Notes: a model not told the origin generated them from the sequence alone. A DNA stretch of 64,000 nt from Syntrophobacterales bacterium (GCA_037388025.1 JARRKO010000034.1:32336-96335), one strand, 5' to 3'; numbered from the stretch's first letter, positions 25,661 to 61,807 are shown. Translations and numbers: made by a program.

Positions 25661-25793
25661 CTCGCTGGCCCTCCTGAGAAACTTATCACTGGGCCAAAAA
25701 CTTCCCATATCCAGGCCTATCTGCATATCAGGCTCACCACCGAGGGCAGCAATTCTTGAAGTTCTGATAATAACCGCGGGGTATAGCAAGATA
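25661..25793 (-). repeat. Repeat family R, copy R1 (133 bp, internally deleted; the only clear minus-orientation copy)
   Basis: The reverse complement begins TATCTTGCTATACCCCGCGGTTATTATCAGAAC and ends GGGAAGTTTTTGGCCCAGTGATAAGTTTCTCAGGAGGGCCAG. These match both termini of the 204-bp copies. Confidence 0.75.
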
Positions 25794-26030
25794 ATCGCCA
25801 TCCTACTCAGGTCTTTTTGGCGCGGGACCCTCATGATGGGAAGAAGCGATGTTTACATTTGATTTTGATGTCTTATGTTTAGAACAAAGGGTATGCCAGC
25901 TTAGATAATTAGGTCCCCAGTTGCATCGCTGAGGCAGAGATGAAAACTGCGGCCGGGGGGTTGCCACCATCTTGCCGGAGGAAAGGCAGATGAGGGTGCG
26001 GCCCATCGGCGGTGATCCAGCGGACGTAGC

Positions 26031-26798
26031 ATGGTATTACATGAAACTGCATTGCAGTATTTAGGCCTAGTTTTCTTGGGATTCGGTATTGGTGCCTATG
26101 GCACCCTGATCGGCGCCGGCGGCGGCTTTCTCTTAATGCCGGTGCTGCTCTTCATTTATCCAAAAGAGCATCAACAAACCCTTACTGCCATCTCCTTGGC
26201 CGTAGTTTTTTTCAATTCCATTTCCGGCGCCGCAGCCTATGCTCGCCTGAAGCGAATTGATTATAAATCCGGCATGATGTTGGCGGCAGCCACGATTCCA
26301 GGCGCCATTTTCGGCGTTATCACCAATGCCTCCATTCCCCGCCGGGTATTTGAAGCCATCTTCAGTGTTTTCCTGATCAGCCTGGCGCTCTTTTTATTGC
26401 TCCGGCCCAAGTCCGACGCCCAACCCGCCGTAGAAAAACCACCCTCCCCCCCTCGCGGCCTGACTCGCATCTTTCAGAGTATGGATGGCGTAACTTTCGA
26501 ATACCATTATTATCTCTGGTTGGGAGTGCCAGTCTTCTTTTTCTTAGGGTTCATCGCCAGCTTTTTGGGCATCCAGTTTATTGTGGTTATCACAACTTTC
26601 GCCGCAACACTGGTGCATATCTTTCACGGTTCCTTCCATCATGGGGCCCACCGCATTGCCGCCCTGGGGATAGGGGTCCTGATCGGAGCCCAATTTGGGG
26701 CCTATCTTTCCAATAAGATTTCAGGCGCCTGGATTATTCGCGCCCTGGCCGTGGCCGTGGCCCTGGTGGGGATTAAGATGCTCATCGCGGTATTCTAA
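26031..26798 (+). CDS. TauE/SafE-family anion exporter membrane protein
   Basis: Multi-TM protein with the GAYGTLIGAGGGFLLMPVLLF motif of the TauE family. Confidence 0.8.
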   Translation: MVLHETALQYLGLVFLGFGIGAYGTLIGAGGGFLLMPVLLFIYPKEHQQTLTAISLAVVFFNSISGAAAYARLKRIDYKSGMMLAAATIPGAIFGVITNASIPRRVFEAIFSVFLISLALFLLLRPKSDAQPAVEKPPSPPRGLTRIFQSMDGVTFEYHYYLWLGVPVFFFLGFIASFLGIQFIVVITTFAATLVHIFHGSFHHGAHRIAALGIGVLIGAQFGAYLSNKISGAWIIRALAVAVALVGIKMLIAVF

Positions 26799-26847
26799 GG
26801 TCTGATGGAAAAATCTTTATCGCGAGCACTCATTAAAAGGAGCGCAC

Positions 26848-27639
26848 ATGTCCATCGTAATCATTTCCAGAGGGTCGTTCAGTCACGGCAAAGAGGTGGC
26901 AGAAAAACTCGCTGAGAATCTGGGCTACGAATGTGTCTCCCGGGAAATTATCCTTGAGGCCTCAAAGCATTTTAATATTAAGGAACTTAAGCTGATCAGG
27001 GCCATTCACGATGCGCCTTCGCTACTAGATCGCTTCACTCATGGCAAAGAAAGGTATGTGACCTATGTCAGGGAAGCGCTGTTGCACCGCTTACAAAAGG
27101 ATAACGTAGTCTATCACGGTTTGGCCGGCCATTTCTTCGTCCGGGACATTCCCCATGTTCTCAAGGTGCGGATCATTGCCGACCTGGAAGACCGGGTAGC
27201 CGAAAAGGTGAAACGTGAGGGGATTTCGGCTCAGGAGGCCCGGGCGTTTCTGGAAAAAGATGACAAGGAGCGCTACCGCTGGAGTTACCATCTTTATGGC
27301 ATTGATACCAGGGACCCGAGCCTCTATGACTTGGTTATCCATATCACTGCCATCACTACCGAGATGGCGGTGAACATTATTCAATATACCGTCAACCAAC
27401 CCAGGTTCAGGACCACGCCCGAATCTCAAAAGGCCATAGATAATCTGCTATTGGCCGCTCAGGTTCAGGCAGCCTTGGTAGAGGAGGTGCCATCCGCTAA
27501 AGTGAATGTGGAAAATGGCGAACTGGTGGTTAGCATGGGAGTGGCCTGGGGTGAGGACAAAAGATTAATCGCCAAAGTTGATCAGATTGTTGATGATGTG
27601 GGCGGGGTTAAGGCCAAAGTCCGTTTGGTCAACCCGTAA
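26848..27639 (+). CDS. Cytidylate-kinase-like family protein with a BON-like C-terminus, tandem paralogue 1
   Basis: The N-terminus IVIISRGSFSHGKEVAEKLAENLGYECVSRE resembles Cytidylate_kin2-type proteins. The C-terminus (NVENGELVVSMGVAWGEDKRLIAKVDQIVDDVGGVKAKVRLV) is BON-like. A near-duplicate gene follows. Confidence 0.7.
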   Translation: MSIVIISRGSFSHGKEVAEKLAENLGYECVSREIILEASKHFNIKELKLIRAIHDAPSLLDRFTHGKERYVTYVREALLHRLQKDNVVYHGLAGHFFVRDIPHVLKVRIIADLEDRVAEKVKREGISAQEARAFLEKDDKERYRWSYHLYGIDTRDPSLYDLVIHITAITTEMAVNIIQYTVNQPRFRTTPESQKAIDNLLLAAQVQAALVEEVPSAKVNVENGELVVSMGVAWGEDKRLIAKVDQIVDDVGGVKAKVRLVNP

Positions 27640-27708
27640 CCTCACCGTGATTCCCCTAAACTTAACTATCGACATTAAACTTATTTGCATTTGCAAGGGG
27701 GGCCATTT

Positions 27709-28503
27709 ATGGCAATCATTACTATTTCCCGGGGTTCCTACAGCCGGGGCAAAGAGGTGGCTGAAAAGGTAGCCGCCAGGCTAGGTTACGAATGTATCTC
27801 CCGGGATGTCCTTCTGGAGGCTTCGGAACAATTCCATATTCCGGAGATCAAGCTGGTTCGGGCGATCCATGATGCGCCTTCGATTCTAGAACGCTTTACC
27901 CACGGCAAGGAAAGGTATGTGTCATATATCAAGGCAGCTTTATTGAAACATGCCCAGAAAGACAACGTAGTCTATCATGGTTTGGCTGGCCATTTCTTCG
28001 TCCAGGACATTCCCCATGTTCTCAAGGTGCGGATCATTGCCGACCTGGAAGACCGGGTGGCCGAAGAGGTGAAACGTGAGGGGATTTCGGCTGAGGAGGC
28101 TCGGGCGTTTCTGCAAAAAGATGATAATGAGCGCTACCGCTGGAGTTACCATCTTTATGGCATTGATGCCCGGGACCCGAGCCTCTATGACTTGGTTATC
28201 CATGTTAAAACCCTCACCACGGACGATGCCGTACACCTGATAATGTGCGCCCTGCAGAGCCCTCGCTTCCAAACCACTGACAGATCACAGAAAGACCTCG
28301 ACGATCTAACCCTGGCCGCCCGCATCCAGGCGGCTTTGGTAGAGGACTTCCCCTCTGTCGAGGTGAACGTCCAAGATGGGGAGGTTTTCATAGAGATCAA
28401 AGGCCCCGTGGAAGAAGAGGACAAGGTGATCGCCCTGCTGCAACGGTTAGCCGTCAAAGTGGTGGGGATCGAGGTCAAGGTAAATGTCTCAATCATCCCC
28501 TAA
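27709..28503 (+). CDS. Cytidylate-kinase-like family protein with a BON-like C-terminus, tandem paralogue 2
   Basis: Same architecture as 26848-27639. I chose the ATG at 27709 (MAIITISRGSYSRGKEVAEK) by alignment with paralogue 1; the ORF opens at 27685. Confidence 0.7.
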   Translation: MAIITISRGSYSRGKEVAEKVAARLGYECISRDVLLEASEQFHIPEIKLVRAIHDAPSILERFTHGKERYVSYIKAALLKHAQKDNVVYHGLAGHFFVQDIPHVLKVRIIADLEDRVAEEVKREGISAEEARAFLQKDDNERYRWSYHLYGIDARDPSLYDLVIHVKTLTTDDAVHLIMCALQSPRFQTTDRSQKDLDDLTLAARIQAALVEDFPSVEVNVQDGEVFIEIKGPVEEEDKVIALLQRLAVKVVGIEVKVNVSIIP

Positions 28504-29054: not shown

Positions 29055-29606
29055 AGTTTTCATACCCCCGCTAAAAGACCTTGACCTTGACCAGGGATAG
29101 CCAACAGATTCTAACAAATATGATGAGTAATTCAACACACTAACCATCAGGTGGTAAGGTGTGGATAGAGAGCAGATAGCAAACGTTTAAGAGATCAAGA
29201 ATTATCATTTTCTTGGGCCGAGAATTCTGCCTTTTTTCTCTTTTTCTCACTTTTTTGTAGAAATCAACATGATTTCCAAAGCTCATGTCCCCAAATTCCC
29301 CATCTTGTAAACAAGACTAGACGGACTGGAGGACCCTTCTCCCTTAGCAAAAGCCTTAAGAATTACTTTGATAAATAATTCACATTAGTTAAAAATTGCT
29401 TGACAACGTCAGGCAAATCATGGCATCAAATAAGAAAAATTCTTATGCTTATCCCCTGTGCGTGTAACTATAGAAGCTAAACCTCCTTCCTATTAGTGCC
29501 ATTAAGTTAACCAAGCCAAAGACTTGGGAATTGTCGTTATTTCTATCGATTTTCTAATTGCTGAGATTTCCTTCCGGATACTGTCAGTTTTATGCTTTCG
29601 TGAATA

Positions 29607-30668
29607 ATGAACGGAGAAACTGATATGGAAGAGGACTCAGTCATCAGGGCGGCCGCAGAAGCAATTGGCGCTGGAAAACCCAACGATTACATTATTTCTC
29701 CAACGAAGCATGCTCAAGAATTTCAAGGCAGAGCACCTGCCTTAGCCGCTATTCTGAATTCAGCCGCAGTAAAGACCGATGCTCTTCGTTACGAAGAAGA
29801 AGATCATAGCGCACTAAACGCACAAAATAAATTTAAAACAATTTTTACCCGTGCAAATATTGCTGTCTTCATAACCGGAGCGTTTATAGCGCTTGTTTTA
29901 GTGATCGGGACACTTGGAAAATTTCTGACAGAAGAGAATCTCAAGATTTTCCTTGCAATTCTTAGTTGTGGAGGCTTCATTGCTGGTGGACTTGCATCGA
30001 GGGATTTGTATTTGATTCGGCAGGGTAGCTTACTAGAAGAGTGGATGTCCAAGCGGGCCTTTGCCGAAACTACAAGACTCGACTATTTTAATAGTTTCGT
30101 AAATTTATCACCGCCAACTTCAGAACTAAGTTCCATTCCATTTGAACTATTAAAACTAGAATATTTTCGGCGCTTCCAACTAGATGTCCAACGTGCTTAT
30201 TATAGAAAAAGAGGGCAACAACACAAGGAAGAGGCATTCAGAACTCAGTCTATAAGCGGATGGGCCATAGGGGGCGCAGCCATCGCCACTGGTGCTGCCG
30301 GAGTGCTTAGTGGTGCCATTAATCCGATGTTTGCAGCCGTCGCAGGCATAGGAACCATTTTCACCAATCTCAGTTCCTTCACTTCCATGAAGGAAGCGGT
30401 AAATCAGGATCGCCGCAATGCAGAGCGTTATGAAAGGACTTTACGAGTGCTGGAGGATCTCTACAAAAAGCTTGATGATGTCAGAAAAGCAGTGTATTCA
30501 GCCGGTATCCAGCCCCTCCTAGATTTTGTTGAGGCAGTGCATGAACAGCTTTCTTTGGAACATAGACAATGGCTTAGTGAAATGGTTGAGGGCAAAGGTG
30601 CCTTCGCCAAGCTCGAAAATACCTTGAAAACTACCTTGAAAGAAGTTCAAAACCAAAAAGACAACTAA
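29607..30668 (+). CDS. SLATT-like 4-TM membrane protein (two 2-TM units), first gene of the island
   Basis: The TM pair IAVFITGAFIALVLVIG / IFLAILSCGGFIAGGLA is followed by WMSKRAFAETTRLDYF. A second TM pair, WAIGGAAIATGAAGVLSG / FAAVAGIGTIFTNL, is followed by RRNAERYERTLRVLEDL. A coiled-coil tail follows. An alternative ATG at 29625 has a GGAG Shine-Dalgarno. Confidence 0.75.
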   Translation: MNGETDMEEDSVIRAAAEAIGAGKPNDYIISPTKHAQEFQGRAPALAAILNSAAVKTDALRYEEEDHSALNAQNKFKTIFTRANIAVFITGAFIALVLVIGTLGKFLTEENLKIFLAILSCGGFIAGGLASRDLYLIRQGSLLEEWMSKRAFAETTRLDYFNSFVNLSPPTSELSSIPFELLKLEYFRRFQLDVQRAYYRKRGQQHKEEAFRTQSISGWAIGGAAIATGAAGVLSGAINPMFAAVAGIGTIFTNLSSFTSMKEAVNQDRRNAERYERTLRVLEDLYKKLDDVRKAVYSAGIQPLLDFVEAVHEQLSLEHRQWLSEMVEGKGAFAKLENTLKTTLKEVQNQKDN

Positions 30669-30852
30669 AAATCACCCCACTTATTTTGAGATGCAATGGG
30701 TCCTATCCAAAAGAAAACATATCTAATGCAATCACTAAATGAAGCTTTTTAAAATAAATGTTCCCAACCGATATCAAATCTATTATGAAATTGATTGAAA
30801 ATTTGGGCTATTATTAATCACTAAAAGATTCAATGTCATGGAGGAAATTTCC

Positions 30853-32352
30853 ATGCCAATGAGCCGCTTAGACAGACCCTTAAAAGTTTTTGTGTCCTCG
30901 ACCTCGGAGGACCTTACAGATTATCGTGCCGTTGCGCGACTTGCCATTTGCGATATGAAATGGGCTCCAGACATGATGGAACACTGGACCACCAGACCAG
31001 AATCGACGCGCGAGGCTTGTTTCGATGAGCTTAGTAAATGTGACCTGATGATCCTGATGGTTGCTTTTCGGCGCGGTTGGGTGCCCACAAAAGATCAGGG
31101 GGGCGATGGGCAGAGTTCCATCACCGCTCTGGAATATAAATACGCTCAGGAAAACAACAAGCCAGTGCTGGTGTTTCTGGCAAAAGATAACTGGCCTGGA
31201 AATCTGTGGGAAAGAGACCCATCCGCCATGGAGTGGATTGAGAATTTTCGTAATGAATTGAACCAAATTGCCAAATTTTTTGAATACGAGAAACCCGCAG
31301 GGGATGAAAAGGAAAGTTTTCCAGTTTTCCGTGCCGAAATACGCAGGGCCCTTTCTGATTATCTCCTCCGCCTTATCCAAGATTCCGGTGAGCTCGAGGA
31401 GCCTGAACCTACCTTACAGCCTGAAGATTTTGATCAATTTGAGGGGGCATGCCAGGCGCTTCAGATGGGGGGATGCATCCCCTTTTTGGGACCTGGAATT
31501 TACGGTGAGGAAGGACCTCTTTCTTCGTGCTCTATAATAGAAGCCCTGGCTGATAAGAAATGTCTTGAAAGGACCCTGGCCACCGCTGCTGAGTACCGAG
31601 AACGCCGTCTTAAGTTCCGGGATTCGTTCTTAATTCGGTTGGAAAAGATTATCAATGAACAGGGCATGCAAACCAAGGAGCCAGTAGTTTTTGAACTTTT
31701 GTTAAAATCTAAACCAGCGCTTATCGTTAGCGCCACCGAAGATCTTTTGTTGGAACAAAGGTTGGAGAAAGCAAATCATCCTCTTTTGATCTTTTGCCAT
31801 GTTATTCGGTCATTAAACGGTAAGCATGACGGAAAAATTATTATGTTTCGTGGTCCTAATGATCCCAACCCTAAATTTCATGATGCAGATAGTATTGCTC
31901 TGAGTTCCACTAAAGACACTTTTATCATTTACAAGCCTTTGGGATCGCCGTTGTTGAACCGTTTAATTAATGACGATCTGAAGGATGATGCGATCGATAC
32001 GGTAGTTATGACTGAAACCGATCACCTGATTCTATTAAGTCGACTGGAAAATCAAAGCACTAGAGTTCCCAATGCTTTTAGCCGTTATTTCCAGAGGTTA
32101 CCCCTGATCTTCCTTGGCTATCCCATGGATGTCTGGCATTACCGTCTTGTTGGTCAAGTTTTCAGGAACAGCGGTGAAACCAGTATGAAACCCATGAGGC
32201 TAGCTGTGCGGCGAACATTTTCTCTCATGGAAAAATTATCTTGGCGAAATCTCGAAGTGGAACTGCTACCCATGGATCCCGATGAGTTAGCCAGAAAAAT
32301 TCTCGATGAACTCAATGAACTTGCGGGGAAAAAAGTGCAGGAGACACCATGA
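30853..32352 (+). CDS. DUF4062 (TIR-like) N-terminal domain fused to a SIR2_2-like C-terminal domain
   Basis: The N-terminus KVFVSSTSEDLTDYRAVARLAI...CDLMILMVAFRRG...SITALEYKYAQENNKPVLVFL follows the DUF4062 pattern. The C-terminus CIPFLGPGIYGEEGPL...LIVSATEDLLLEQ...LPLIFLGYPMDVWHY follows the SIR2_2-like pattern. The ORF opens at 30838, and the ATG at 30853 has GGAGG 8 nt upstream. The stop overlaps the next start (ATGA). Confidence 0.75.
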   Translation: MPMSRLDRPLKVFVSSTSEDLTDYRAVARLAICDMKWAPDMMEHWTTRPESTREACFDELSKCDLMILMVAFRRGWVPTKDQGGDGQSSITALEYKYAQENNKPVLVFLAKDNWPGNLWERDPSAMEWIENFRNELNQIAKFFEYEKPAGDEKESFPVFRAEIRRALSDYLLRLIQDSGELEEPEPTLQPEDFDQFEGACQALQMGGCIPFLGPGIYGEEGPLSSCSIIEALADKKCLERTLATAAEYRERRLKFRDSFLIRLEKIINEQGMQTKEPVVFELLLKSKPALIVSATEDLLLEQRLEKANHPLLIFCHVIRSLNGKHDGKIIMFRGPNDPNPKFHDADSIALSSTKDTFIIYKPLGSPLLNRLINDDLKDDAIDTVVMTETDHLILLSRLENQSTRVPNAFSRYFQRLPLIFLGYPMDVWHYRLVGQVFRNSGETSMKPMRLAVRRTFSLMEKLSWRNLEVELLPMDPDELARKILDELNELAGKKVQETP

Positions 32353-35300
32353 ACACCCAAGATAACCTTAATTCTGCGGTACCCCTGCCGGATACTCCTT
32401 TTGTGGGCGCAAGGCCCTTTGAGCAAAAAGAGCAAGCCATTTTCTTTGGCCGGGATCGGGATGCTGTTCTCCTTCGGGACAAAATATTCTCTTCCAAGCT
32501 CACTGTTTTCTATGGTCTATCGGGTGTCGGCAAATCATCAATCCTGCGAACCCTCCTGGTTCCTTACTTGGAAGATCAGGAAGCCTTTGTCATCACTTTC
32601 GATGGCTGGAGCAGCAACGACCCCGTCATGGCCATCAAGACCGAGCTAATCAAAGAGGCTATCAGGCTAAGGATTCCGGATCCAGGCGCAGGCGCTCCGA
32701 CACTTGCTGACCTTATTCGTCTCCTGATCAGCGTTGATGGGCGGACCGTGGTGCTCATCCTGGACCAGTTCGAGGAGTTCTTTACCCATGGCCACCGCCC
32801 AGCTCTCTTGCGCCGGGAACTTGGGTCTTTGGTGCGCAGCCCCAACCTTGATGTCAGGATTCTCCTGTCCTTACGGGAGGAGCACCTCGCCTCCCTCGAG
32901 CCTTTCAGGTCTGAGATCGTAAACCTGTTTCAATCTACTTATCGACTCGAGCTCATGAACTCCGAAGGTGGTCGGGAAGCTATTGAGGGACCTCTAAAGG
33001 TGTTCAAGGTGGAATATGAACCAAAACTAGTAGATACTTTAATTAACGATCTGCGGCTGGAACAGCATTCGACCAAGACCGATCGTCCGACTGCCACCGA
33101 CGACGCACCTATAGACCTGCCGATGCTGCAACTGGTCTGTGACGAGCTGTGGAAGGAAGCAACGAAGGAAAAAGCGAAAAAGCCGGGGTCAATAAAATTT
33201 ACCCTGGATTTATATAAAAGTCTGGGAGAACGACAAGGCATCCTGGAGATCTATCTCCAGCGTGTCATGCCGCACCACTGGCGCCAGAAGTATCTTACTG
33301 CCCGGCTCATGGAGCATCTCGCCCCGCCGGAAGGGTACAAAGTTGCCCTTTCTGCAGACTACTTGGCTCACCGTATCAAGACCCCCCGGTCCAAGGTAAA
33401 TTATGAACTCGAACGTCTCAGCGATGACGAAGTGCGTGTTCTACAAAGCCGAACATATGAAGGCGACGTTGTCCGCTACGAGCTCAGACATGACAGGTAT
33501 ATTCCCATCATCGCGAACTGGCGCGACCAGGTCTTAAGGAACATTAGACGCTGGCGCAATGCGATCAGTACAGCTGTCATCCTGATCTTAATGGTTTTCG
33601 GCGTCTTATTGGTGGACGGATATATTCTTCACAGGAACACAGTGGGGGTCATGACCAGGGAAGACCTATCCTCTCAAGGTGGGGACAGAGAAGAGCTTAT
33701 GGCGAGAAAGTTTGATCAAGTCGCCAATTATCTCATCTGGACCAGAACTTGGTATAATCCCTATCATTTAGTGTGGGAAAATCGCTTCGATTACTTGAAG
33801 AAAATCCTTATTAAATACGGACCTAAGTTGCCTAAGAATTATGGCATCGAGCGTTCAGGGGTGGAGTTCATTACCTTGCCCTCTGAACAGGAGGATTGGC
33901 CTCTGACGGTGAGCTACTCGAGCTCCCGGGGGTTAAATCCCTTTATCTTTACCCAAATGTGGCAATCCATTGCTACAACCCTGTTAAATAAAAAATGGGG
34001 TATCCCGGTCCCCTTGAAGCTTCGACTGATTAAAGAGGATATTCCCAAGGAGCAGATCAAATTAACCAGGCCCCATATCAAAGAACCGAAATATTTTAAT
34101 AACATTCCGGCTTACGAGGATAAAGCATTCATTAGATGCAACCCCAAAAATCTTCTGGGTACGGCTCAAATTTTTTTCGAGAGATTCAGAGGCGAGTGGA
34201 TAAAAATCGATCCAAAAGAGACTAAAGAGGAGAAGAATGAGGAAGAATCCGGAGAATCAATCTGGGTAATCCCCCGCTGGTCCCTGCCGGCCTGGAAAGC
34301 TTCAGGCGAAACCATTTATGACGGCAGCGCTCTGCCGGCCTATATTCTGGTATACAGGCTGGTTTCCCATCTTGAATTATTGCTGACTCCCGACGCCATG
34401 GAGATTCTCCTAGAAAAAGTCGCCAAAATGTATCCTGAGACAGTGGCTGAGGCCCGTGCTGTCCGTGGGGACCAACTCTTGGAGGATATCCAGGAAATTA
34501 ATTACCGAATGATTTTAGAGGACAGGGACTTGCTCAACCAGTTACCTACTATCCTGGACGCCCTGGCAAACTACCCGGAAAAATCATCGAAGGAAATTGC
34601 TAATGAGGTCTCTTCAGACATTGATTCTTTCCGGGTTTCTTTGCAGTCAGGACTCAGAGGCCCCCACAAGACCAAACCTCGGCCTCCTGAAGTTAAATTT
34701 CCTGAAGCCTATCGAGAGGCCGGCAACTGGCTCCCGAATTTTAAATCCAAAGTTCGAGTCTATCATGGAGTAGACCTGCTCCCTAAGTGGTTCACGAATC
34801 AAGGAGATTTTAAGCCTGAAGTCCTTACGCAACTTAAAAAAATCCAGGACAGAGTCTTTAAACAGTTCGGAGTTCCTATGCCAGCCGGGAAACTTATAAT
34901 GCTTCCTAACCTCACCGGCAACACCCTGCGCGTGGAGCTCATGAATCAGACAACCCAACATTCCCATGCTGACGTATTCCAGGTTGACCAGGAGGATGCC
35001 CTGAAGCAGCTCGCCGCGGCTTTGACCTTCCGGCTGGATTCCTACCGGATTCATTTCTTGAACGCTGAGCAGGTCCGCAAGATTCTGGATGACCTCAATC
35101 CGGCTGTGAGGTCGTGGTTACAAACCCGTTATTCTCTCACCGATCTGAAACTGCTTCTGCGAACGGTAATAAACCCCTCTGCAGAAGAGCTCAAGTATCG
35201 GAAGAAAATGTTCGCTAAGGGAGTCCTGGATCAGACTCGTGGGATTCCAGACGGCAGCACCATCCGTCAGCCGGGCTGGCTCCTGGCCTCCCTCGTCTTC

Positions 35301-37481
35301 TGGTCTCAGGTTGACGATTACCTTTATCTCCGGGATATGGCCGCAGACCTGCGCAAGACCCAACACGCCAGGCTCAATGCCAAGACAGTGTCCCCCACAG
35401 GGGAGGTCGCCAAACTTATAATCAAGGGCGTCAGGTGTCTGGATCAGGGGCACATTGATGAGGCGGAGAAGGCCTTCTCCGAAGCCATACAATCTGACCG
35501 GAAATCTGCAGTCTCCAGTTTCCTGGCCTTTTATCCCCAGGAGCTTCAGCAGCAACTCATCCAAGCCCATAAAGAATTGTTTGCCGGCCTTCTGGCCCCC
35601 TCCCAAGAGCTAAAGCAATTGAGAAAATTATTATTTCGTGACCTCAAGTTGGCAGAGTTGAAGGCCAATTTAAACGACTCCTTGATCGACCTGGTTTTCG
35701 ACAAGAACGAGGATATGCGAGCTCGCCGCCGCATTATGATGTTATTTCTTGACGTTTCTGAGTTTACCCGAGACCAATGGCTCAAACTGGTTGACTATTC
35801 TCTGGCTAAATTCGGTTCGCCGCTCAAGTGGCCCGCCAACGAAACCGCGTTTTTTGGTACACTGCTCTTAATGAGACAGGACCAGCTTCTCGATCTGCCG
35901 GGTTCCACCGGGCCCAAATTTACTAAATATGGTTTGGTTTTATTGAAGATTGCCCAGCGACGACTTGACAATCAAGATACCTTTCAGCAGACAAGCAAGG
36001 TTCTAAAGATTTTTAAAAGACCAGGAAACCTGGAGTTAAGCCGCCCAGAAAGAATCGAGCTGGAGGATTTGGTGGACCAAAAGGGCCTTGATGATAAAAC
36101 AGCCCGGTGCCTCCGCCTGTGTTTGTTAGCCGCCTATCCGGAGAGCTATCGCCAGGATAAACGCACCCTTACCGATAAGATCGTCAAGCTGCATGGCACC
36201 CCGGACCGGTGGCCGGCGGAGGAGGCCGCCTGGTTCGGCCTCAGGCTCTTGTCAGAGTTCGACCCCCTGACTGATGACCAGAAAATCCCGGAAAAAGGCA
36301 TGGATTTTCTGACCCGAGCCATGCCCCAACTCCGCGGGGCAGAAGCTAAAAATCTGTCGACTAAAATTTTGACAATTTGTGGAACGCGCGGTCCCAACCA
36401 GTGGTGTTGGAACCTCGTGCCTGGTCTGGCGAAAAGCCGCAAGGACCCATTTTTATACTTTAATATTGGCTTGTTCCTGGCCGAGCGCGAGGTTCCGGCC
36501 GATCTGGAGTATGCCTGCACCCTGGCAGAGCGGGCCAAAAAAGGATTTAGCAATTTAAACCTTCCTCCGAAAAAAAGAGATGCTTTAATAGATTACGCTG
36601 ATTTCCTGTGGGCCAGAGCTACCTTGGGACTGGCCATCTTAGGTGCTGAGTTGGACCGCGAAAAGGTGGAAAAGGTGGAATACATCTTTGCCCGCCTCTT
36701 GAAATCAGAGAATCTGGGGAGCTCAGCACATGAGCAAATGGCCAGGCTGAGATTGTGGGAAAAACGCCCCCAGGAAGCCGCTGAAATCATCGACCTGGCG
36801 ATCCAGAAATGGCCCAACGAGCAAGAACCTTACGGTTTGAAACTGAAAATGCTGCTTGAGGCTGGTGATGACGAGGGCGCGGCCAAAGTTGCCCACAAGG
36901 CAGGGACCTTGGTCGAGAGGGTCGACGGAAAAATTACCTACGAATCTAGCGGCTTTGCCTTCGTCTGGGCCCTGGGGCTGCTTATGACCCATACCGACCC
37001 CTGGGAACGGTCCGCCCGTGATTTTCTGCAAACCGATCATCCTTACGTGCCTTATATAGCCATGCTGCTGTATGCGCATTTGACCGGCAAGGATAAGGAA
37101 GAGGCCCTGAAGGTGATCCAACAGCACTGGGCCCGGGTCCGGCCGGAGACCTGGGAGGAGCGACTGCGACAAAGAGATCAAACCGTCTGGCGGGAGATGC
37201 TTATCGGTTACTACCTCAATAAGGTCCCAGCTGAGAGGATTCTCGGTCCTCTGGAGGACGACAGAAAGTTTGACAAATCAGAGCTCAGCAAGGTTCCCAT
37301 GCCTCGAAAGGGTATGCTCTGTGAAGCTTACTTTTATGATGCTTTGCTTGCCAAAGCCCAGGGGAAGAGAAGTCGAATGAAAGCCAGTTTACAAAAAGCT
37401 GCGGACTCAAATTACCAGAGTTACTTCGAGTATGGCATGGCCAAGTATCTGCTGGCTCAACTGAATCAGAAGCAACCCTAA
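32349..37481 (+). CDS. 1710-aa STAND-type P-loop NTPase with one TM helix, two FlhA/FHIPEP-C-like modules and a C-terminal TPR-like region
   Basis: AGGAG Shine-Dalgarno. The lead-in is PFVGARPFEQKEQAIFFGRDRD. Walker A GLSGVGKSS lies at 32514-32540 and Walker B is VVLILDQFEEFF. The TM helix AISTAVILILMVFGVLLVDGYIL (about 33561-33630) follows RNIRRWRN. The C-terminus is TPR-like (RLRLWEKRPQEAAEIIDLAIQKWPNEQEPYGLKLKMLLEAGDDEGA). Confidence 0.85.
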   Translation: MNTQDNLNSAVPLPDTPFVGARPFEQKEQAIFFGRDRDAVLLRDKIFSSKLTVFYGLSGVGKSSILRTLLVPYLEDQEAFVITFDGWSSNDPVMAIKTELIKEAIRLRIPDPGAGAPTLADLIRLLISVDGRTVVLILDQFEEFFTHGHRPALLRRELGSLVRSPNLDVRILLSLREEHLASLEPFRSEIVNLFQSTYRLELMNSEGGREAIEGPLKVFKVEYEPKLVDTLINDLRLEQHSTKTDRPTATDDAPIDLPMLQLVCDELWKEATKEKAKKPGSIKFTLDLYKSLGERQGILEIYLQRVMPHHWRQKYLTARLMEHLAPPEGYKVALSADYLAHRIKTPRSKVNYELERLSDDEVRVLQSRTYEGDVVRYELRHDRYIPIIANWRDQVLRNIRRWRNAISTAVILILMVFGVLLVDGYILHRNTVGVMTREDLSSQGGDREELMARKFDQVANYLIWTRTWYNPYHLVWENRFDYLKKILIKYGPKLPKNYGIERSGVEFITLPSEQEDWPLTVSYSSSRGLNPFIFTQMWQSIATTLLNKKWGIPVPLKLRLIKEDIPKEQIKLTRPHIKEPKYFNNIPAYEDKAFIRCNPKNLLGTAQIFFERFRGEWIKIDPKETKEEKNEEESGESIWVIPRWSLPAWKASGETIYDGSALPAYILVYRLVSHLELLLTPDAMEILLEKVAKMYPETVAEARAVRGDQLLEDIQEINYRMILEDRDLLNQLPTILDALANYPEKSSKEIANEVSSDIDSFRVSLQSGLRGPHKTKPRPPEVKFPEAYREAGNWLPNFKSKVRVYHGVDLLPKWFTNQGDFKPEVLTQLKKIQDRVFKQFGVPMPAGKLIMLPNLTGNTLRVELMNQTTQHSHADVFQVDQEDALKQLAAALTFRLDSYRIHFLNAEQVRKILDDLNPAVRSWLQTRYSLTDLKLLLRTVINPSAEELKYRKKMFAKGVLDQTRGIPDGSTIRQPGWLLASLVFWSQVDDYLYLRDMAADLRKTQHARLNAKTVSPTGEVAKLIIKGVRCLDQGHIDEAEKAFSEAIQSDRKSAVSSFLAFYPQELQQQLIQAHKELFAGLLAPSQELKQLRKLLFRDLKLAELKANLNDSLIDLVFDKNEDMRARRRIMMLFLDVSEFTRDQWLKLVDYSLAKFGSPLKWPANETAFFGTLLLMRQDQLLDLPGSTGPKFTKYGLVLLKIAQRRLDNQDTFQQTSKVLKIFKRPGNLELSRPERIELEDLVDQKGLDDKTARCLRLCLLAAYPESYRQDKRTLTDKIVKLHGTPDRWPAEEAAWFGLRLLSEFDPLTDDQKIPEKGMDFLTRAMPQLRGAEAKNLSTKILTICGTRGPNQWCWNLVPGLAKSRKDPFLYFNIGLFLAEREVPADLEYACTLAERAKKGFSNLNLPPKKRDALIDYADFLWARATLGLAILGAELDREKVEKVEYIFARLLKSENLGSSAHEQMARLRLWEKRPQEAAEIIDLAIQKWPNEQEPYGLKLKMLLEAGDDEGAAKVAHKAGTLVERVDGKITYESSGFAFVWALGLLMTHTDPWERSARDFLQTDHPYVPYIAMLLYAHLTGKDKEEALKVIQQHWARVRPETWEERLRQRDQTVWREMLIGYYLNKVPAERILGPLEDDRKFDKSELSKVPMPRKGMLCEAYFYDALLAKAQGKRSRMKASLQKAADSNYQSYFEYGMAKYLLAQLNQKQP

Positions 37482-50744: not shown

Positions 50745-50838
50745 AGAAGACAGAGAATATTTTTTCCTTTGATGAGGGGCGCTTCCCTTTGGCACAGGTC
50801 CAAGAAGGAATCTCTTCGAGAAGAACTGAAATTCAAGA

Positions 50839-51042: not shown

Positions 51043-51212
51043 TTTCAAAGTTCTTAACATATTGCCACTACATTTCTTGGAGCAAAACCAGGAATTGAGT
51101 TTCATAAAGTAGTGGCAGGCTTTCGTGGGTTTTTCGGAGTGCGATAGATATAGTCAACTGTATTCTTAGCCCAGAGCCGCTCATGCAGTTGCGCAAGGGG
51201 TCTAGGTACCAG

Positions 51213-51578
51213 TCAAGAATTATGGTTCAAACGACCATCTTTGAGACGGTAAACATAATCGAACCCTTCGATCATCCTGACATTGTGGGCACTCCCGATC
51301 AGACCAGTGGCGTTGGGGGCTATTTTGTCAATCTTCAAACCCCATAGAATGGAGGGCACAATGAAAATTCCACCGTATGCCGCGTATACCATGCCGAAAT
51401 GAGCCGGTTGCAGAGTGGGGATAATTCCCTAGATCACCAGCACCGCTCCCCAGAGCACTCCAAGCCAGGCACTTTTATCTTCTGGCAGCCAAAACCACAC
51501 CAGGTATCCACCGTCAATTTCACACAAACCAGCCAGAATGAAAAAGATCAGGGATGGGATGATCTGGATTAGTTTTAT
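51213..51578 (-). pseudogene. ynfA: Decayed YnfA/UPF0060-family membrane protein gene: ATA in place of the start, in-frame TAG, 3' end replaced by an ABC-ATPase gene tail
   Basis: A single frame reads [32 protein letters not shown]...[28 protein letters not shown]...LIGSAH. It then continues [23 protein letters not shown]. The TAG is at 51429-51431. Bases 51235-51292 are nearly identical to 53390-53448, the 3' end of the ATPase gene. Confidence 0.75.
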
Positions 51579-53241: not shown

Positions 53242-53367
53242 GGCAATAAGTGGGTATGTGGCTCCCGAGGCAGTCGGCTACGGCTTAATTATGGGGTATC
53301 ACTTTAAAAGTGTCAGGCATCAGAGTGAACTTCAGAGGCCGGGGGCTAAAGTTTCTCTTTTAGTCAG

Positions 53368-54057
53368 TTAATGATTGTTGCTAAGCCGGCCATCTTTGAG
53401 ATGGTAAACATAATCGAACCCTTCGATCATCCTGACATCATGGGTCACCACGATAACCGCGGATTGATTCTCCTTGGCGATTCGCTTCAATAACTCCATA
53501 ACCTTCTTGCCCCTGGTGGTATCCAGAGAAGCCGTAGGTTCATCGGCCAAGATGAGCCTGGGGTTGTTGGCCAGGGCCCGGGCTATGGCTACCCGCTGCT
53601 GTTCGCCGCCGGAGAGAAGGGCAGGGAGGTAATCCGCCCGATCAGCTATCTCCATAATATCCAAGAGTTCCATAACCCGGTTATGGGCAGCCTCGCCCTT
53701 GATGTCCACCAGGCTCAGGGGGAACAGGACGTTTTGTCGGGCCGTCAGAAAAGGAATGAGATTGTGGGCCTGGAAGACAAAACCCATCTTTTCCCGGCGA
53801 ACACGGCGAATGTCCACCCCGCCGGACCAGCCGTTTTTCTGAAAAATCGTCTGCCCATCAAAGAGGATTTTCCCCTGGGTAGGTTCAAGAATCAGGCTGG
53901 TGCAGAGCAGCATGGTGGTCTTGCCCGAGCCGCTGGGTCCCAAAAGGGCCACCAGATCCCCGGGGGACACCGAAAGATTGATATCCTCCAGGGCCCGCAC
54001 CTCCAGGCGGCCAGACCCGAAAATCTTACTGAGGCCCTCGATCCCCAGGACTTCCAT
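53368..54057 (-). CDS. ABC transporter ATP-binding protein (MacB/LolD-type)
   Basis: Walker [10 protein letters not shown], signature [15 protein letters not shown], Walker B LILADEPT and H-loop VVTHD. Confidence 0.92.
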
Positions 54058-57759: not shown

Positions 57760-57882
57760 TGGTTTGCTCCAGACAGATAAGGGAAGATCGACTCTTACCC
57801 CAAGTTCTGTCTAGAAAACCCTTGCCATAACAAAATCCGGCGCGCCGGACACGATTACGAAAATAATGAAGTTATTAGAAAA

Positions 57883-57990
57883 TAGCTTGCCAGCCCTGAC
57901 AGTTATTACTTTGCCATGAAAAATTCCAGGTGTGCTCTGAATATCAAATCTTGGGTAGGGTAGTCGAGAGGAGGTCTGCTGAATTTGTGG
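57883..57990 (+). repeat. Repeat family R, copy R6 (about 108 bp, 3'-truncated)
   Basis: TAGCTTGCCAGCCCTGACAGTTATTAC...GAAAAATTCCAGGTGTGCTCTGAATATCAAATCTTGG aligns with the first ~75 nt of R3. The TGATAAGTT 3' module is absent. Confidence 0.65.
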
Positions 57991-58841: not shown

Positions 58842-59108
58842 AGCGACTCGAAAAAAGTAAAATAAATTCATTCTTATTTCTCCAAATCTTCCTTGGCCGA
58901 TAAAATATGCTTCCCCGAAAATCTTTTTGAATCTGAACTGCCTTTTTTCCTCCCGATTGGTCATGGGTAGCTGTCAATCACTTCGAATAAATTATAATAT
59001 TTTTTATTAAGCTGGCAAACGCACTCTATTCCTTTCTTGGGCCAGCGGGCCAGTGCCTGCCAGTAATGTTGTACGGAAGGAAGAAATATTAACTAAAGGA
59101 AGTGCTTA

Positions 59109-59262
59109 TAACTTGCCAAACCTCGCAGTTATCACTTCCCCTTGAAAATTGCAGAGATGATTTGAATATCAGAACAGAGATGGGTTGACCCAAGAATAGG
59201 CTATGAAGACACGCACTGGCTGGCGCCCTCCATGGTGAGGCTGGTGTTAATAGGGCAGTTAT
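59109..59262 (+). repeat. Repeat family R, copy R7 (about 154 bp, internal deletions)
   Basis: The 5' end is TAACTTGCCAAACCTCGCAGTTATCAC...AAAATTGCAGAGATGATTTGAATATCAGAACA. The 3' end is GTGTTAATAGGGCAGTTAT. Confidence 0.7.
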
Positions 59263-60203: not shown

Positions 60204-60404
60204 GGTAAGCCTCACTTTCTTAGCATGGGTTCTCGATGGCCTAGAACCGCTATTGAGGATCAGGGTTCACTGGGCCAATAAGGAAAGGGGATTGGAGATG
60301 CCTATAAGGTAGGGACTAAGATTACTCTGTCAAGAGAATCTGTACGTGGCGGAAAGGCAAGGGAAGTCAGGTACTCTTGAGAAATTTAGTGCGGAAATAG
60401 CTGC

Positions 60405-60568
60405 TATCTTGCCAAACCCCGCAGTTATCACCAGACGCAGAATAATTGCAGAGATGATTTGAATATCAGAACTGGGTGGGGAATGATGTAGGAGCCTGCG
60501 GTGAATACATCCGGCTGGGGTAAATCGGACCCCTTTTGCAGATAAGTGATAAACTTTAGGTGGAGGAT
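60405..60568 (+). repeat. Repeat family R, copy R8 (about 164 bp, internal deletions)
   Basis: The 5' end is TATCTTGCCAAACCCCGCAGTTATCACCAGAC...AATTGCAGAGATGATTTGAATATCAGAAC. The 3' end is AAGTGATAAACTTTAGGTGGAGGA. Confidence 0.7.
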
Positions 60569-60869: not shown

Positions 60870-61073
60870 TCATTCATGATCATGGCACAGTAAGATGTCC
60901 AATCCCTCCACCACACTTCTGCTATTTCCCCTCTTCCAAATGCCCCCCCTGGAGGCGTCATCGATCATTGGGTCGACGCCGCCTCCCGGGAGGCGATACA
61001 TTGTGGTCATTTCCTTTACTGCGGCCCGATAAATGGCTTTCTTGGTCAGGCGGAGCTCTATAACCTTTCCCAT
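60870..61073 (-). CDS. Hypothetical small protein (67 aa), possibly co-transcribed with 61119-61403
   Basis: ATG ORF 46 nt downstream of the 94-aa gene on the same strand. No motif recognised. Confidence 0.4.
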   Translation of the reverse strand: MGKVIELRLTKKAIYRAAVKEMTTMYRLPGGGVDPMIDDASRGGIWKRGNSRSVVEGLDILLCHDHE

Positions 61074-61118
61074 GGCTAGGCCCCTCCAGCTGACCTTGTA
61101 TTGAATCCAGGGAATATC

Positions 61119-61403
61119 TCAGTGGAGGACATCCCAATTCAGGTTCAAGGTGTTGTCGTAAAGGGTGTATTTGTACCCCATCATTTTTCCGACTCCGGGA
61201 ACCATTCCCTCTTCCACTTTCCAGTATCGCAGGTAAACAGACGGGACCATGCGGGGTTCATCAGTTAGAGGATCAGGGTCGATATTGTGCCAGACTTCTT
61301 TTTTCTCCATAACCCGCCAAAGGGTGCCATACTTTTTGCTGCGCACCGTCTGCCCCACACTGGGCAGCCCTTTTTCCCGGATAATTTGCTCATACTCTTG
61401 CAT
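61119..61403 (-). CDS. Small conserved hypothetical protein (94 aa), paralogue of 351-635
   Basis: AAGGAGGAG Shine-Dalgarno before the ATG. Same length as the ORF at 351-635 and about half identical to it. Confidence 0.7.
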   Translation of the reverse strand: MQEYEQIIREKGLPSVGQTVRSKKYGTLWRVMEKKEVWHNIDPDPLTDEPRMVPSVYLRYWKVEEGMVPGVGKMMGYKYTLYDNTLNLNWDVLH

Positions 61404-61433
61404 GGCTGTTCTCCTCCTTGAATGAGTTGGGCA

Positions 61434-61470
61434 GAAAAAAATGACTTCTGCCCGTATGGACAGAAGTCAT
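61434..61470 (-). terminator. Strong intrinsic-terminator-like hairpin about 30 nt upstream of the 61403 start (leader attenuator or end of an upstream transcript)
   Basis: The minus-strand RNA is AUGACUUCUGUCC-AUAC-GGGCAGAAGUCAU followed by U7. The 3' half can alternatively pair with the downstream UUCUGCCC (61429-61436 pairs with 61446-61453). Confidence 0.6.
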
Positions 61471-61603
61471 CGGCCCCACCTGAGCAAGGGGGACGGTTTT
61501 GGCGGACTTCATCGCCTTTTATAATCAAAGGTTAGATATCTTCGACCCATATGTCAACCTTAATAATTTTAGTCTGGGGAAATCCTGACGGCCCGATAGC
61601 GGC

Positions 61604-61807
61604 TAACTTGCCAAACCCTGCAGTTATCACCAGACCCTCAAGAATAGCAGCTATAGTTTGAATATCAGAACAAGGCGGGGCAGATCCGTGGATGGGTTTC
61701 GGGGAACCTTGCGAGGGTAGGCCCTGGACGAGAGACTCAATGTTCCGATATGGTCTGGGTAGCTTGAATTTCCAGCGGCTTGATAAGTTTCTAATGAGAG
61801 CAGATAG
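61604..61807 (+). repeat. Repeat family R, copy R9 (204 bp)
   Basis: TAACTTGCCAAACCCTGCAGTTATCACCAGAC...GGCTTGATAAGTTTCTAATGAGAGCAGATAG. It is collinear with 50839-51042 over its full length. Confidence 0.9.

Follow-up and report, generated by a model that had tools for sequence, protein, structure and literature searches.

R, a ~200-bp non-coding DNA repeat of sulfate-reducer-related bacteria with ends that may be target sites of Xer-like tyrosine recombinases

Introduction

Bacterial MITEs and mobile insertion cassettes are small, non-coding, intergenic, multi-copy elements bounded by inverted repeats, and those MITEs that have been described in prokaryotes derive from DDE or IS200/IS605 elements. 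Certain other repeats are dedicated landing sites for mobile elements, such as REP/BIME sequences (IS1397 and IS621), integron attC sites (IS1111-attC), the dRS3/NIME repeats of Neisseria (Nf prophages) and the inverted repeats of Tn21-family transposons (IS4321 and IS5075); the enzymes of those elements that invade REP-, attC- and Tn21-type targets are of the DDE, DEDD or IS110 type. Elements which carry several tyrosine recombinases are likewise known: SE, GInt, RIT and Tn554 require three to four core genes (IntA-Tfp-IntB-Srap, GinA-D, RitA-C and TnpA-C, respectively), and SE, of which the smallest spans 6.3 kb, terminate in imperfect repeats of 13-19 bp and have a 6-bp spacer (PMC10214605).

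Here we describe R, a previously undescribed ~200-bp non-coding DNA repeat of sulfate-reducer-related bacteria. With nine to ten intergenic copies in the 64-kb window (that is, the whole stretch of DNA that was analysed), inverted repeats, restriction to one lineage, truncated and internally deleted copies and an occasional passenger gene between its ends, R resembles a MITE. Unlike MITEs, it has no known partner transposase sharing its ends and no demonstrated target-site duplication, it is strongly co-oriented, and its copies are not homogeneous but old and diverged. Its ends, moreover, appear to be crossover sites of tyrosine recombinases, and a literature search found no MITE of that kind. 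As in the targeted repeats named above, the mobile element enters a conserved motif of an intergenic multi-copy repeat, with position and orientation fixed; however, the invaders of R carry tyrosine recombinases, R is far longer than REP or dRS3, and both its termini and internal motifs are used.

Results

Copies of R in the window

From the four full copies (R2, R3, R5 and R9) we built an nhmmer profile, which recovered nine loci in the window with E-values from 1e-57 to 1e-6 (Table 1), in line with the at least nine copies reported in the initial annotation; a tenth copy begins at the window's right edge (L116, 4686-4763). The 5' motif was seen seven times in the window, as compared with 0.02 occurrences expected by chance. 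The full copies align at 65-87% identity (87% for R5 and R9), and each measures 197 bp from heptamer to heptamer, corresponding to the 204 bp of the borders drawn initially. Copies within a genome that are 65-87% identical are old, and there is thus no hint of recent bursts. R1, which lacks profile positions 55-124, is the sole minus-strand copy among the nine. R4 and R8 had been drawn too long: the 3' module of R4 and the 5' module of R8 were recovered, whereas the upstream part of R4 from ~46041 is a degenerate 5' remnant (CTTGGCA..AGTTATC) and the extension of R8 to 60568 is unsupported by the profile. Short 3' fragments proposed at 18622-18657 and 29168-29180 were not matched by the profile even with filters disabled and a threshold of E<=10, and are not retained. 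All copies are intergenic, as first noted and in agreement with independent JGI/NCBI gene calls on identical contigs. R6 lies upstream of an OEP-HlyD-MacB-ABC operon, and R9 is flanked by a TPR-cyclase gene and a fluoride riboswitch, the latter being the only Rfam match in the window and located outside R. Among the genes of the window we found no transposase, as had been stated before, and no recombinase.

Table 1. Copies of R in the 64-kb window, with heptamer positions
Copy	Composition	Position	Strand	5' heptamer	3' heptamer	Basis
R1	internally deleted	25656-25798	-	25784-25790 (variant CTTGCTA)		nhmmer matches 25798-25747 (hmm 3-54) and 25747-25656 (hmm 125-216)
R2	full	37705-37908 (profile 37699-37913)	+	37708-37714 (CTTGCCA)	37898-37904 (AGAGCAG)	nhmmer, gap-free alignment
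R3	full	40440-40643 (profile 40435-40647)	+	40443-40449	40633-40639 (variant AGAGTAG)	nhmmer, gap-free alignment
R4	3' module only	46169-46237	+		46222-46228 (AGGGCAG)	nhmmer profile
R5	full	50839-51042 (profile 50835-51046)	+	50842-50848	51032-51038	nhmmer, gap-free alignment
R6	5' module only	57877-57973	+	57886-57892		nhmmer
R7	5' module and centre, without 3' module	59104-59254	+	59112-59118		nhmmer
R8	5' module only	60399-60483	+	60408-60414		nhmmer
R9	full	61604-61807 (profile 61598-61813)	+	61607-61613	61797-61803	nhmmer, gap-free alignment

Architecture, coding capacity and RNA structure

The ends of R are imperfect inverted repeats of ~28 bp, each consisting of nTAn, a heptamer (CTTGCCA at one end, CTGCYCT at the other), N10 and TTATCA, and the heptamer-N10-TTATCA register is identical at both ends, as read from non-redundant termini (77 for the 5' end, 21 for the 3' end). 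The complementarity of the ends claimed initially thus holds, but it is better read as in-register terminal inverted repeats. A TA, considered initially as a possible target-site duplication, is located one base outside the heptamer at ~75% of the termini and is indistinguishable from part of the inverted repeat. Across genomes, the end-to-end length falls into two tight classes of 193-198 bp and 217-220 bp with divergent centres, which could stem from a single indel between two subfamilies. The make-up is mosaic, comprising a 5' module, a centre and a 3' module, to which a hairpin may be added upstream; GATA-type palindromic motifs recur, the GATAA..TTATC arms are separated by 17 nt, and GA(G/T)ATG motifs are present internally.

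R is non-coding, in agreement with the lack of a conserved ORF noted initially: stops interrupt each of the six reading frames in two or more of the four full copies. The RNAalifold consensus fold of eight full copies amounts to -2.8 kcal/mol, covariation contributing no favourable term, 58 diverse 5' modules yielded zero pairs, three hand-picked hairpins were no better than shuffled controls, and single-sequence z-scores are inconsistent on both strands. A search of Rfam with R returned nothing at E<=10, and no IS605-related motif either. A site scan of the R copies at 57-62 kb revealed no promoter or terminator site recurring at a fixed position; a strong candidate promoter is located between R7 and its gene.

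Distribution, orientation and gene neighbourhood

Profile searches of relatives in MAGs and metagenomes, as suggested in the initial annotation, yielded ~100 further copies outside the window, which are confined to about eight Desulfobaccales/Syntrophobacterales-type MAGs and related metagenome contigs; Rfam, plasmids and viral contigs gave no profile match. Within one MAG the copies are scattered over several contigs. Most copies are cut down to the first 55-100 nt, and conservation at the level of motifs persists between species despite 30-35% overall divergence. Three sister species have the efflux operon in common (~80% nucleotide identity) and retain its proximal promoter motif, but the syntenic R6 position is devoid of R, as are the entire 51 kb around the operon; in one of them a recombinase remnant occupies the R6 position. 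The presence/absence polymorphism considered at the outset is hence observed between species but not among four same-strain contigs, and no strain-level pair of filled and empty sites was found for any copy.

Adjacent copies are co-oriented in 30 of 33 pairs (p = 1.4e-6) and form runs spaced 0.5-7 kb. In 37 of 56 cases the 5' module is turned toward a gene start, and in 19 of 25 the 3' module toward a stop codon; the orientation of R matches that of neighbouring R copies better than that of neighbouring genes. The genes downstream of R are functionally unrelated. An orthologue of a 217-aa gene (76% identity), residing in an unrelated neighbourhood, again has R just downstream and in the same relative orientation. 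Some copies enclose a single gene between their 5' and 3' modules (MucR-like, HU-like or redoxin-like, as judged by eye), and the segments between R copies also include operons of four to six genes. Two AKR gene units are 87% identical, whereas the adjacent R bodies exhibit only family-level relatedness; gene and R were therefore not co-inherited.

Recombinase elements joined to R

A prolific IS-like unit of 2.2 kb, comprising two overlapping Phage_integrase/SAM-like ORFs (Xer-like tyrosine recombinases) and perfect 12-bp inverted ends with room for only these two ORFs in between, sits exactly at the R heptamer. Either end of R is used, the orientation of the unit is fixed, and a 7-bp repeat is found on both sides. 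Its left flanks finish in ..CTTGCCA in differing contexts, while its right flanks open with CTTGCCA and continue into no fewer than six different R bodies; at an R 3' end (L173), the repeats on both sides are CTGCCCT. The site formed by the joined ends of the unit is deduced to be TATTACGTACAG-CTTGCCA-CTGTACGTAATA, a 12-7-12 palindrome. Close homologues of the unit number in the thousands, and individual sequences recur on as many as 69 contigs. Metagenome assemblies across such repeats can be chimeric, so that the left and right flanks of one contig are perhaps not physically linked; each junction is valid by itself even then. The interior and the inverted repeats of the unit are unrelated to R, which is therefore not a deletion derivative of it. 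Since the unit is also inserted at a CTTGCCA outside R, again between CTTGCCA repeats (L174), R may be simply a convenient multi-copy target. The recombinases score 68-116 bits against the 265-bit cut-off for integron integrases (TIGR02249), and likewise fall below the XerC/XerD equivalog cut-offs (198 versus 335 bits).

A second element, with a single recombinase, joins R at the internal GA(G/T)ATG motifs, its ends meeting R at approximately positions 57-68 and at 157 in both orientations. Breakpoints of genome rearrangement also coincide with R: two loci (L064 and L164) are 100% identical over 1,066 nt up to the edge of the heptamer and unrelated beyond, and the orthologues L073 and L156 part after ..TTGCAG within the 5' module. 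The ends of the recombinase elements near R differ from the termini of R, and ~500 kb of family loci contained no autonomous element with R-type termini.

Discussion

REP/BIME/REPIN sequences are GC-rich palindromes of 20-40 nt associated with a RAYT (Y1 HUH) transposase, whereas R is a ~200-bp modular unit with palindromes lacking covariation, and the annotated ORFs include no RAYT. An IS200/IS605-derived PATE, a type with a TnpA(Y1)/TnpB partner and with subterminal hairpins in place of inverted repeats, was considered because of the strand polarity, but R has terminal inverted repeats, its hairpins are unsupported and it lacks an IS605-related Rfam motif. Like attC sites, R copies are direct-orientation sites between genes with conserved ends and a variable centre; however, alignments and the list of termini, from which this was read directly, show CTTGCCA/AGRGCAG termini and no RYYYAAC...GTTRRRY boxes, which in attC are accompanied by paired L boxes. 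Xer/dif sites (28 bp, 11-6-11, XerC/XerD) are at variance with arms 17 nt apart and with the recombinase scores, and unlike dif, pdif modules and IMEX, R is 197-220 bp long and dispersed. The 2.2-kb unit shares with SE, GInt, RIT and Tn554 (i) several tyrosine recombinases with RHRY-type motifs, (ii) site-specific insertion, and (iii) termini in inverted repeat, between which a short spacer would lie once they are joined. It is set apart from them by having merely two simple Xer-like genes, perfect 12-bp repeats and a 7-bp repeat, and by its occurrence in Thermodesulfobacteriota-type lineages, as compared with Gammaproteobacteria or Firmicutes.

The initial annotation had left the choice between R as a MITE-like element, as a structured small RNA family and as a set of recombination sites. 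The first and the last of these are supported and can be merged, because R has terminal inverted repeats, is absent from sister species, and is joined by recombinase elements exactly at conserved motifs. We consider the chances about evenly balanced that R is a MITE-like DNA repeat whose ends and internal motifs are crossover or target sites of tyrosine recombinases. R would then function as DNA rather than RNA, and its termini and internal GA(G/T)ATG motifs would be recognized by simple Xer-like enzymes supplied by small IS-like elements of the same bacterial lineage. R itself would be a non-autonomous element spread in trans, and we infer that these recombinases mobilise it; the conserved end-to-end spacing (197 or ~218 bp) may permit synapsis of both ends, and runs of co-oriented copies may arise by integration at R sites.

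Among the alternatives, an RNA role, i.e., a family of ~200-nt structured small RNAs or a cis-acting UTR element, would explain why the length is kept while the centre diverges, and why the termini are complementary. It is disfavoured and appears barely credible: R is non-coding with neither conserved RNA structure nor covariation, for which reasons the small-RNA reading is rejected, and the inconsistent thermodynamic signal on either strand, the empty Rfam search, the lack of promoters or terminators at fixed positions in the copies scanned and the reduction of most copies to their first 55-100 nt all speak against it. One might instead regard R as a regulatory or architectural DNA module of the host (operator, promoter, terminator or nucleoid-protein array) which is kept by selection and struck by mobile elements incidentally. 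The conservation of motifs across diverged species, the moderate bias relative to genes and the recurrent GATA-type palindromes would agree with such a role, but the downstream genes are unrelated in function, no promoter-like site recurs at a fixed position in the copies at 57-62 kb, the candidate promoter next to R7 is outside the repeat, sister species manage with the operon and its proximal promoter motif but no R, and R follows its neighbouring copies more than the genes; we thus consider this very unlikely.

Mobility of R could also take forms other than the one preferred here. R copies might be attC-like sites, with circles of one R and one or a few genes integrating and excising at other R copies via the heptamer, thereby giving dispersed co-oriented cassette arrays. 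Co-oriented runs at 0.5-7 kb spacing, breakpoints precisely at the heptamer with identity on one side only, the 217-aa gene in its unrelated neighbourhood and the bracketed single genes would agree with this. The attC-like reading is nevertheless quite unlikely given that R lacks the attC R''/R' consensus, that the recombinases score far below integron integrases (116 versus 265 bits), that copies lie scattered over several contigs and not in a single array beside an integrase, that would-be cassettes include operons of four to six genes, and that the AKR units show gene and R to be separately inherited. Finally, a DDE transposase (IS630/Tc1-like with a TA target, for instance) may move R as it would any ordinary MITE, the inverted repeats of R being merely favoured for landing by the tyrosine-recombinase elements, for which IS4321 and IS5075 at Tn21-family inverted repeats provide a precedent. 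The terminal inverted repeats often preceded by TA, the small, non-coding, intergenic and lineage-specific nature of R and the capability of the 2.2-kb unit to insert at CTTGCCA outside R fit this proposal. However, ~500 kb of family loci contain no DDE transposase with matching ends, the sole DDE gene noticed being an IS3-type insertion; TA is found at just ~75% of the termini, the 30:3 co-orientation is unexpected for symmetric cut-and-paste MITEs, and junctions of three kinds with recombinase elements are located within R. Overall, we regard an ordinary DDE-type MITE as unlikely.

Returning to tyrosine-recombinase sites, it is tempting to extend that reading, although the extension is itself doubtful: R might be the first non-autonomous family that is moved and recombined by Xer-like tyrosine recombinases and not by DDE or HUH transposases, with att-like ends in fixed helical phase. 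Integration and excision would then build co-oriented arrays and shuffle the genes between them, constituting a dispersed integron-like system in Desulfobaccales-type bacteria with the 2.2-kb unit as its minimal autonomous partner.

For metagenomics, R and the 2.2-kb unit are of practical concern, as they disrupt assemblies and can yield chimeric contigs in these taxa. The deduced 12-7-12 site along with diverse natural targets makes the system directly testable, and it could serve as a small tool for site-specific integration. If the ends of R are indeed tyrosine-recombinase sites, this lineage would contain hundreds of dispersed recombination sites and, homing to R, a two-recombinase mobile element that is both very compact and very abundant. 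MITE-like repeats would thereby gain a new type of partner, and genome rearrangement and gene shuffling in poorly studied anaerobes would have a new route.

A family of intergenic DNA repeats with inverted-repeat ends

Our search of the window with a profile derived from the four complete copies and iterated once retrieved nine loci of the ~200-bp intergenic repeat family R (designated R1 to R9; E-values 1e-57 to 1e-6), establishing that the family proposed in the initial annotation is real. A repeat search of the window likewise recovered the four 204-nt copies in register and gap-free at 65–87% identity, along with shorter repeat families for the 5' module and the 3' module, and the 5' motif CTTGCCANNCNNNNCAGTTATC occurs 7 times in the window versus 0.02 times expected by chance. 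Two additional 'short fragments' listed in the initial annotation found no support in the profile search of the window. Contigs of the window's own population (99.8–100% identical) hold the same R copies and reveal a tenth one at the window's right edge. Independent gene calls on these contigs place all copies between genes, and Pfam detects neither transposase nor recombinase in the window; the intergenic location and the lack of a transposase are as first noted. Six-frame translation bears out the claim that R holds no conserved ORF: no reading frame is free of stop codons, each meeting them in two or more of the four full copies, and coding potential was hence rejected.

R is bounded by imperfect inverted repeats. 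When 77 5' termini are compared with 21 reverse-complemented 3' termini, both follow an identical register, with the 5' end reading ..aTA./CTTGCCA/.aCCc.gCAG/TTATCA and the reverse complement of the 3' end reading ..g.Ta./CTGCtCT/.atTAGAAAC/TTATCA. The heptamer CTTGCCA is invariant across 58 aligned 5' modules; rare variants exist, e.g., CTTGCTA in R1. Measured from heptamer to heptamer, R falls into two tight length classes of 193–198 bp and 217–220 bp, with exactly 197 bp in five copies (all four full window copies and one from another genome) and a single outlier of 308 bp. These classes persist despite freely diverging centres, as had been suspected from the window copies, and are ~21 bp apart, that is, roughly two helical turns. 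The constraint fits a spacing or phase requirement on the two ends, and the existence of two classes could reflect a single indel between two subfamilies. Many copies end after profile position 55–62 or 70–100, and on three contigs an ordinary small gene lies between the 5' and 3' modules, which are separated by 470–740 nt (judged by eye, these genes are MucR-like, HU/IHF-like and redoxin-like). Simple co-inheritance of a 'gene plus R' cassette is contradicted by comparison of AKR paralogues. In several copies, a similar terminator-like hairpin (GGCAGGG...CCCTGCCTTTTTAT) is found 20–30 nt upstream of the R 5' end at a fixed distance, and may either belong to a mosaic repeat as an additional module or form a REP-like family of its own.

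Copies of R in the window and elements associated with R on contigs from other assemblies and metagenomes (L-numbers)
Feature	Location	Description
R2, R3, R5, R9		complete copies; only four complete in the window
R1		internal deletion
R4		3' module kept
R6, R8		~85–100 nt of 5' module kept
R7		3' module missing
2.2-kb unit	L128:1791-3977; also L146, L152, L171, L153, L173:8815-11016, L174:85-2217, L064 from ~6497	two recombinase genes
Single-recombinase element	L035:~4067-6609; L029:6106-7101+	MGKLHD..., 295-aa ORF
Single-recombinase element, ends	L143:1-77, L138:95-170, L160:6334-6421	
Terminator-like hairpin upstream of R	L167/L150, L144, L080 (7816+), L160, L133, L135	

Conservation of R as DNA sequence

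The initial annotation had also considered R to be a structured small RNA. Rfam returned nothing on R, either at the gathering threshold or at E<=10. RNAalifold assigned eight full copies from four genomes a consensus fold of -2.8 kcal/mol with an unfavourable covariation term, and predicted zero pairs for 58 non-redundant 5' modules. Single-sequence folding energies, calculated for both strands against mononucleotide shuffles, yielded z-scores of -3.9 to +1.7 with neither strand consistent, and three hairpins chosen by eye paired no better than column-shuffled controls. Structured RNA was thus rejected, as was structured single-stranded DNA, and on this negative evidence the palindromic motifs of R are conserved as DNA sequence. 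An origin of the IS200/IS605 type, which the strand polarity and the 'direct-repeat hairpins' of R had brought to mind, was discarded because the ends are in-register inverted repeats and the hairpins are devoid of covariation. A promoter or terminator role was likewise rejected, since a consensus scan of 57–62 kb identified no sites recurring at fixed positions in the R copies located there, and the orientation bias of R relative to genes is no more than 66–76%; sigma-54 spacing (GG-N10-GC) fits, by eye, a minority of copies only.

A two-recombinase unit at both termini of R

On six contigs a common sequence is located directly 5' of different R copies, and its extension leads to two overlapping genes encoding 388 and 295 aa (rec1 and rec2, at 1816-2982 and 2909-3796 of L128). 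Both products exhibit Phage_integrase and SAM-like N-terminal domains with visible R..HxxR..Y motifs, and their best NCBIfam matches are XerC, XerA, XerD and the integron integrase, all of which score far below curated cut-offs. The resulting discrete 2.2-kb unit is 99% identical between contigs with different surroundings, terminates in perfect 12-bp inverted repeats (CTGTACGTAATA...TATTACGTACAG) and is flanked by 7-bp repeats. In three contexts its left flank ends in ...TAT(A/C)CTTGCCA, and in another one in CACTGCCA; its right flank starts with CTTGCCA and runs on into the R 5' module, with at least six different R copies represented. A 75%-identical relative from a Desulfatiglandales MAG carries CTTGCCA on both sides at a non-R site. 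On L173 the unit has CTGCCCT on both sides, which is the reverse complement of the R 3'-terminal AGGGCAG, and R interior again adjoins its right end. Taken together, CTTGCCA at R 5' ends and CTGCCCT on L173 indicate that both R termini are used in the same relative orientation. As read from these end sequences, joining of the two unit ends would create TATTACGTACAG-CTTGCCA-CTGTACGTAATA, a 12-7-12 layout typical of tyrosine-recombinase core sites (loxP/FRT/dif-type).

For the smaller recombinase, metagenomes contain thousands of homologues at >=74% identity, mostly on contigs of 1–3 kb, and single sequences among these are recorded on up to 69 contigs; such abundance on short contigs is the signature of a prolific IS-like element. 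On L152 (81-1270, minus strand), an IS3-family OrfA/OrfB pair starts directly after a truncated R 5' module, indicating that R regions collect several kinds of mobile element.

Junctions and breakpoints within R

A phmmer search with the two unit recombinases revealed further tyrosine recombinase genes adjoining R copies: L064 contains the two-gene unit; in both L029 and L035 a lone recombinase gene is located ~110–120 nt from a truncated R, and in L154 one is found 14 nt away from the 5' module of an R copy. In L035, R positions 1-68 are followed by the left end of the single-recombinase element (..GAACTAAACGCTTCGCGTGG); in L029 this end is preceded by the reverse complement of R positions 57-216, a pattern indicating that one R site (ATGATCT) received insertions in both orientations. 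The second end of the element is located 1.5 kb downstream of the gene in L035; in L143 and L138 it adjoins R behind ..AATTGCAGAG/AT, and in L160 behind ..GTGTTGATAT. The junction motifs at this end are GA(G/T)ATG at R positions ~57 and ~157. The right end of the element includes a 55-nt extension past an internal copy of the left-end motif CATGAACTAA. Breakpoints are also found where no element is visible: L064 and L164 are 100% identical over 1,066 nt as far as the heptamer's outer edge, past which they are unrelated. In the orthologous pair L073/L156, similarity covers the 5' flank (92% identity) and ~55 nt at the start of R, after which the two diverge.

Distribution and orientation

An initial scan of the genome collection with a pattern of only 16 specified bases returned at least 115 loci, mostly chance matches. 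Scanning with the 5' motif combined with profile filtering confined true members, among the matches listed, to ~8 MAGs labelled Desulfobaccales, 'delta proteobacterium', Syntrophobacterales or Thermodesulfobacteriota, which frequently hold two or three copies per 8 kb. A stricter pattern identified ~60 further copies on 46 metagenome contigs; these contigs frequently terminate within an R copy, as is expected of a multi-copy repeat. Neither a plasmid collection nor viral contigs yielded a match to R.

Adjacent R copies share their orientation in 30 of 33 pairs on non-redundant contigs (p = 1.4e-6). The bias relative to genes is weaker (66–76%), with the 5' module facing a gene start in 37 of 56 cases and the 3' module facing a stop codon in 19 of 25. 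The sole flip in the window (R1 versus R2-R9) coincides both with the change of genes from plus to minus strand near 38 kb and with the peak of the cumulative GC skew at ~38–40 kb, a combination that would fit either a replication terminus or the boundary of an inversion, the signal being noisy at this scale. The polarity could stem from linkage to the replichores, from arrays built up through site-specific integration or from selection relative to transcription.

Proposed mobility of R itself

Efflux operons corresponding to the OEP-HlyD-MacB-ABC operon downstream of R6 were obtained from three sister species via orthologues of the MacB-type permease, with ~80% nucleotide identity over 4–6 kb. 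No R copy is present in 51 kb of these sequences, and the proximal GGCGCGCCGG motif upstream of the OEP gene is kept in all sister species; in two of them the next gene upstream of OEP follows after 107–157 nt, versus 551 nt with R6 in the window. The absence of R next to a conserved proximal motif identifies R6 as a lineage-specific insertion outside the conserved control region of the operon. In the third species, a 71-aa tyrosine recombinase remnant (L176:7185-7400) is located 110 nt upstream of OEP, which is the position of R6, and resembles the recombinase gene adjoining R in L154.

Strain-level pairs of filled and empty sites were not found, the four contigs of the window's population being identical in R content and orthologues of the 217-aa gene having no synteny; the mode of movement, target and footprint of R are thus matters of inference. 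Compared with the window, contig L117 from a second MAG of the same population (GCA_037387945.1) has five stretches of 92–181 bp missing, which may be assembly artefacts or real deletions. Four are within genes (TPR-cyclase, HlyD, cyclase, HTH-cupin), and the fifth covers the initial 20 nt of the abhydrolase ORF together with the region upstream of it, stopping 44 nt before R8.

Other features in the vicinity of R

A fluoride riboswitch at 61454-61525 (minus strand; 45.6 bits versus a gathering score of 34) is located upstream of a 94-aa ORF (61119-61403) without Pfam match, which is followed, in gene calls on L116 (identical to the window), by a 67-aa gene with no Pfam hit on record; the transcript start would be within ~80 nt of the end of R9. 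A three-gene cluster at 29607-37481 (plus strand), comprising a weak SLATT_1 match, DUF4062 and a 1710-aa nSTAND1 NTPase, looks like a defence island and stops 220 nt before R2, where the gene strand switches. The tRNA-Pro(CGG) called by ARAGORN at 36204-36280 (plus strand) lies inside the ORF of this STAND NTPase (32349-37481) and is probably a false positive. A 604-aa ORF at 38472-40286 (minus strand) without Pfam match consists of 23–25-residue repeats (DNA periods 66–84 nt) and may encode a beta-helix or adhesin-like protein. Two tandem paralogous Cytidylate_kin2 genes (26848-27639 and 27685-28503), located downstream of R1 and TauE, share 74% DNA identity over 300 nt. Finally, an 80-nt copy of the 3' end of the ABC ATPase gene (51210-51289 and 53365-53444, 84% identical) sits between the adenylate cyclase gene and R5, which hints at an old rearrangement beside an R copy.

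Nature of R and of the two-recombinase unit

Of the options raised in the initial annotation, MITE-like element and recombination site merge into one, given the inverted-repeat ends and the recombinase junctions, while the small RNA falls away. We propose that R is a DNA repeat with an inverted repeat at either end, and that its ends serve as crossover and target sites of tyrosine recombinases, a reading which has, in our judgement, about an even chance of being correct. Its main rival, namely that R is an ordinary MITE of the DDE type which recombinase elements merely target, we consider unlikely. R is MITE-like in that it is small, non-coding, multi-copy and lineage-specific, has inverted repeats and truncated copies, and in some cases carries passenger genes. 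It differs from a MITE in that no partner transposase of matching ends was found in ~500 kb of family loci, in lacking a demonstrable target duplication, and in its unusual polarity. We also found no description in the literature of a MITE moved by a tyrosine recombinase.

REP, attC, dRS3 and the ends of Tn21 are repeat families that serve mobile elements as dedicated targets, and R resembles them in being used in this manner. Yet R does not display the features that define attC, dif, REP and PATE, and identity with integron attC sites was specifically rejected, because attC boxes are absent and integrase cut-offs are not reached. It is tempting to speculate that R constitutes a dispersed shuffling system of integron-like character, with Xer-like recombinases as its drivers, but we regard this as rather improbable. 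The 2.2-kb unit found at R ends follows the same logic as the SE, GInt, RIT and Tn554 transposons (compared using the classification of PMC8138268). It is, however, much smaller and possesses only two simple Xer-like genes, whereas these transposons have three or four core genes and SEs span at least 6.3 kb (PMC10214605). The 2.2-kb unit may represent an undescribed, minimal tyrosine-recombinase transposon.
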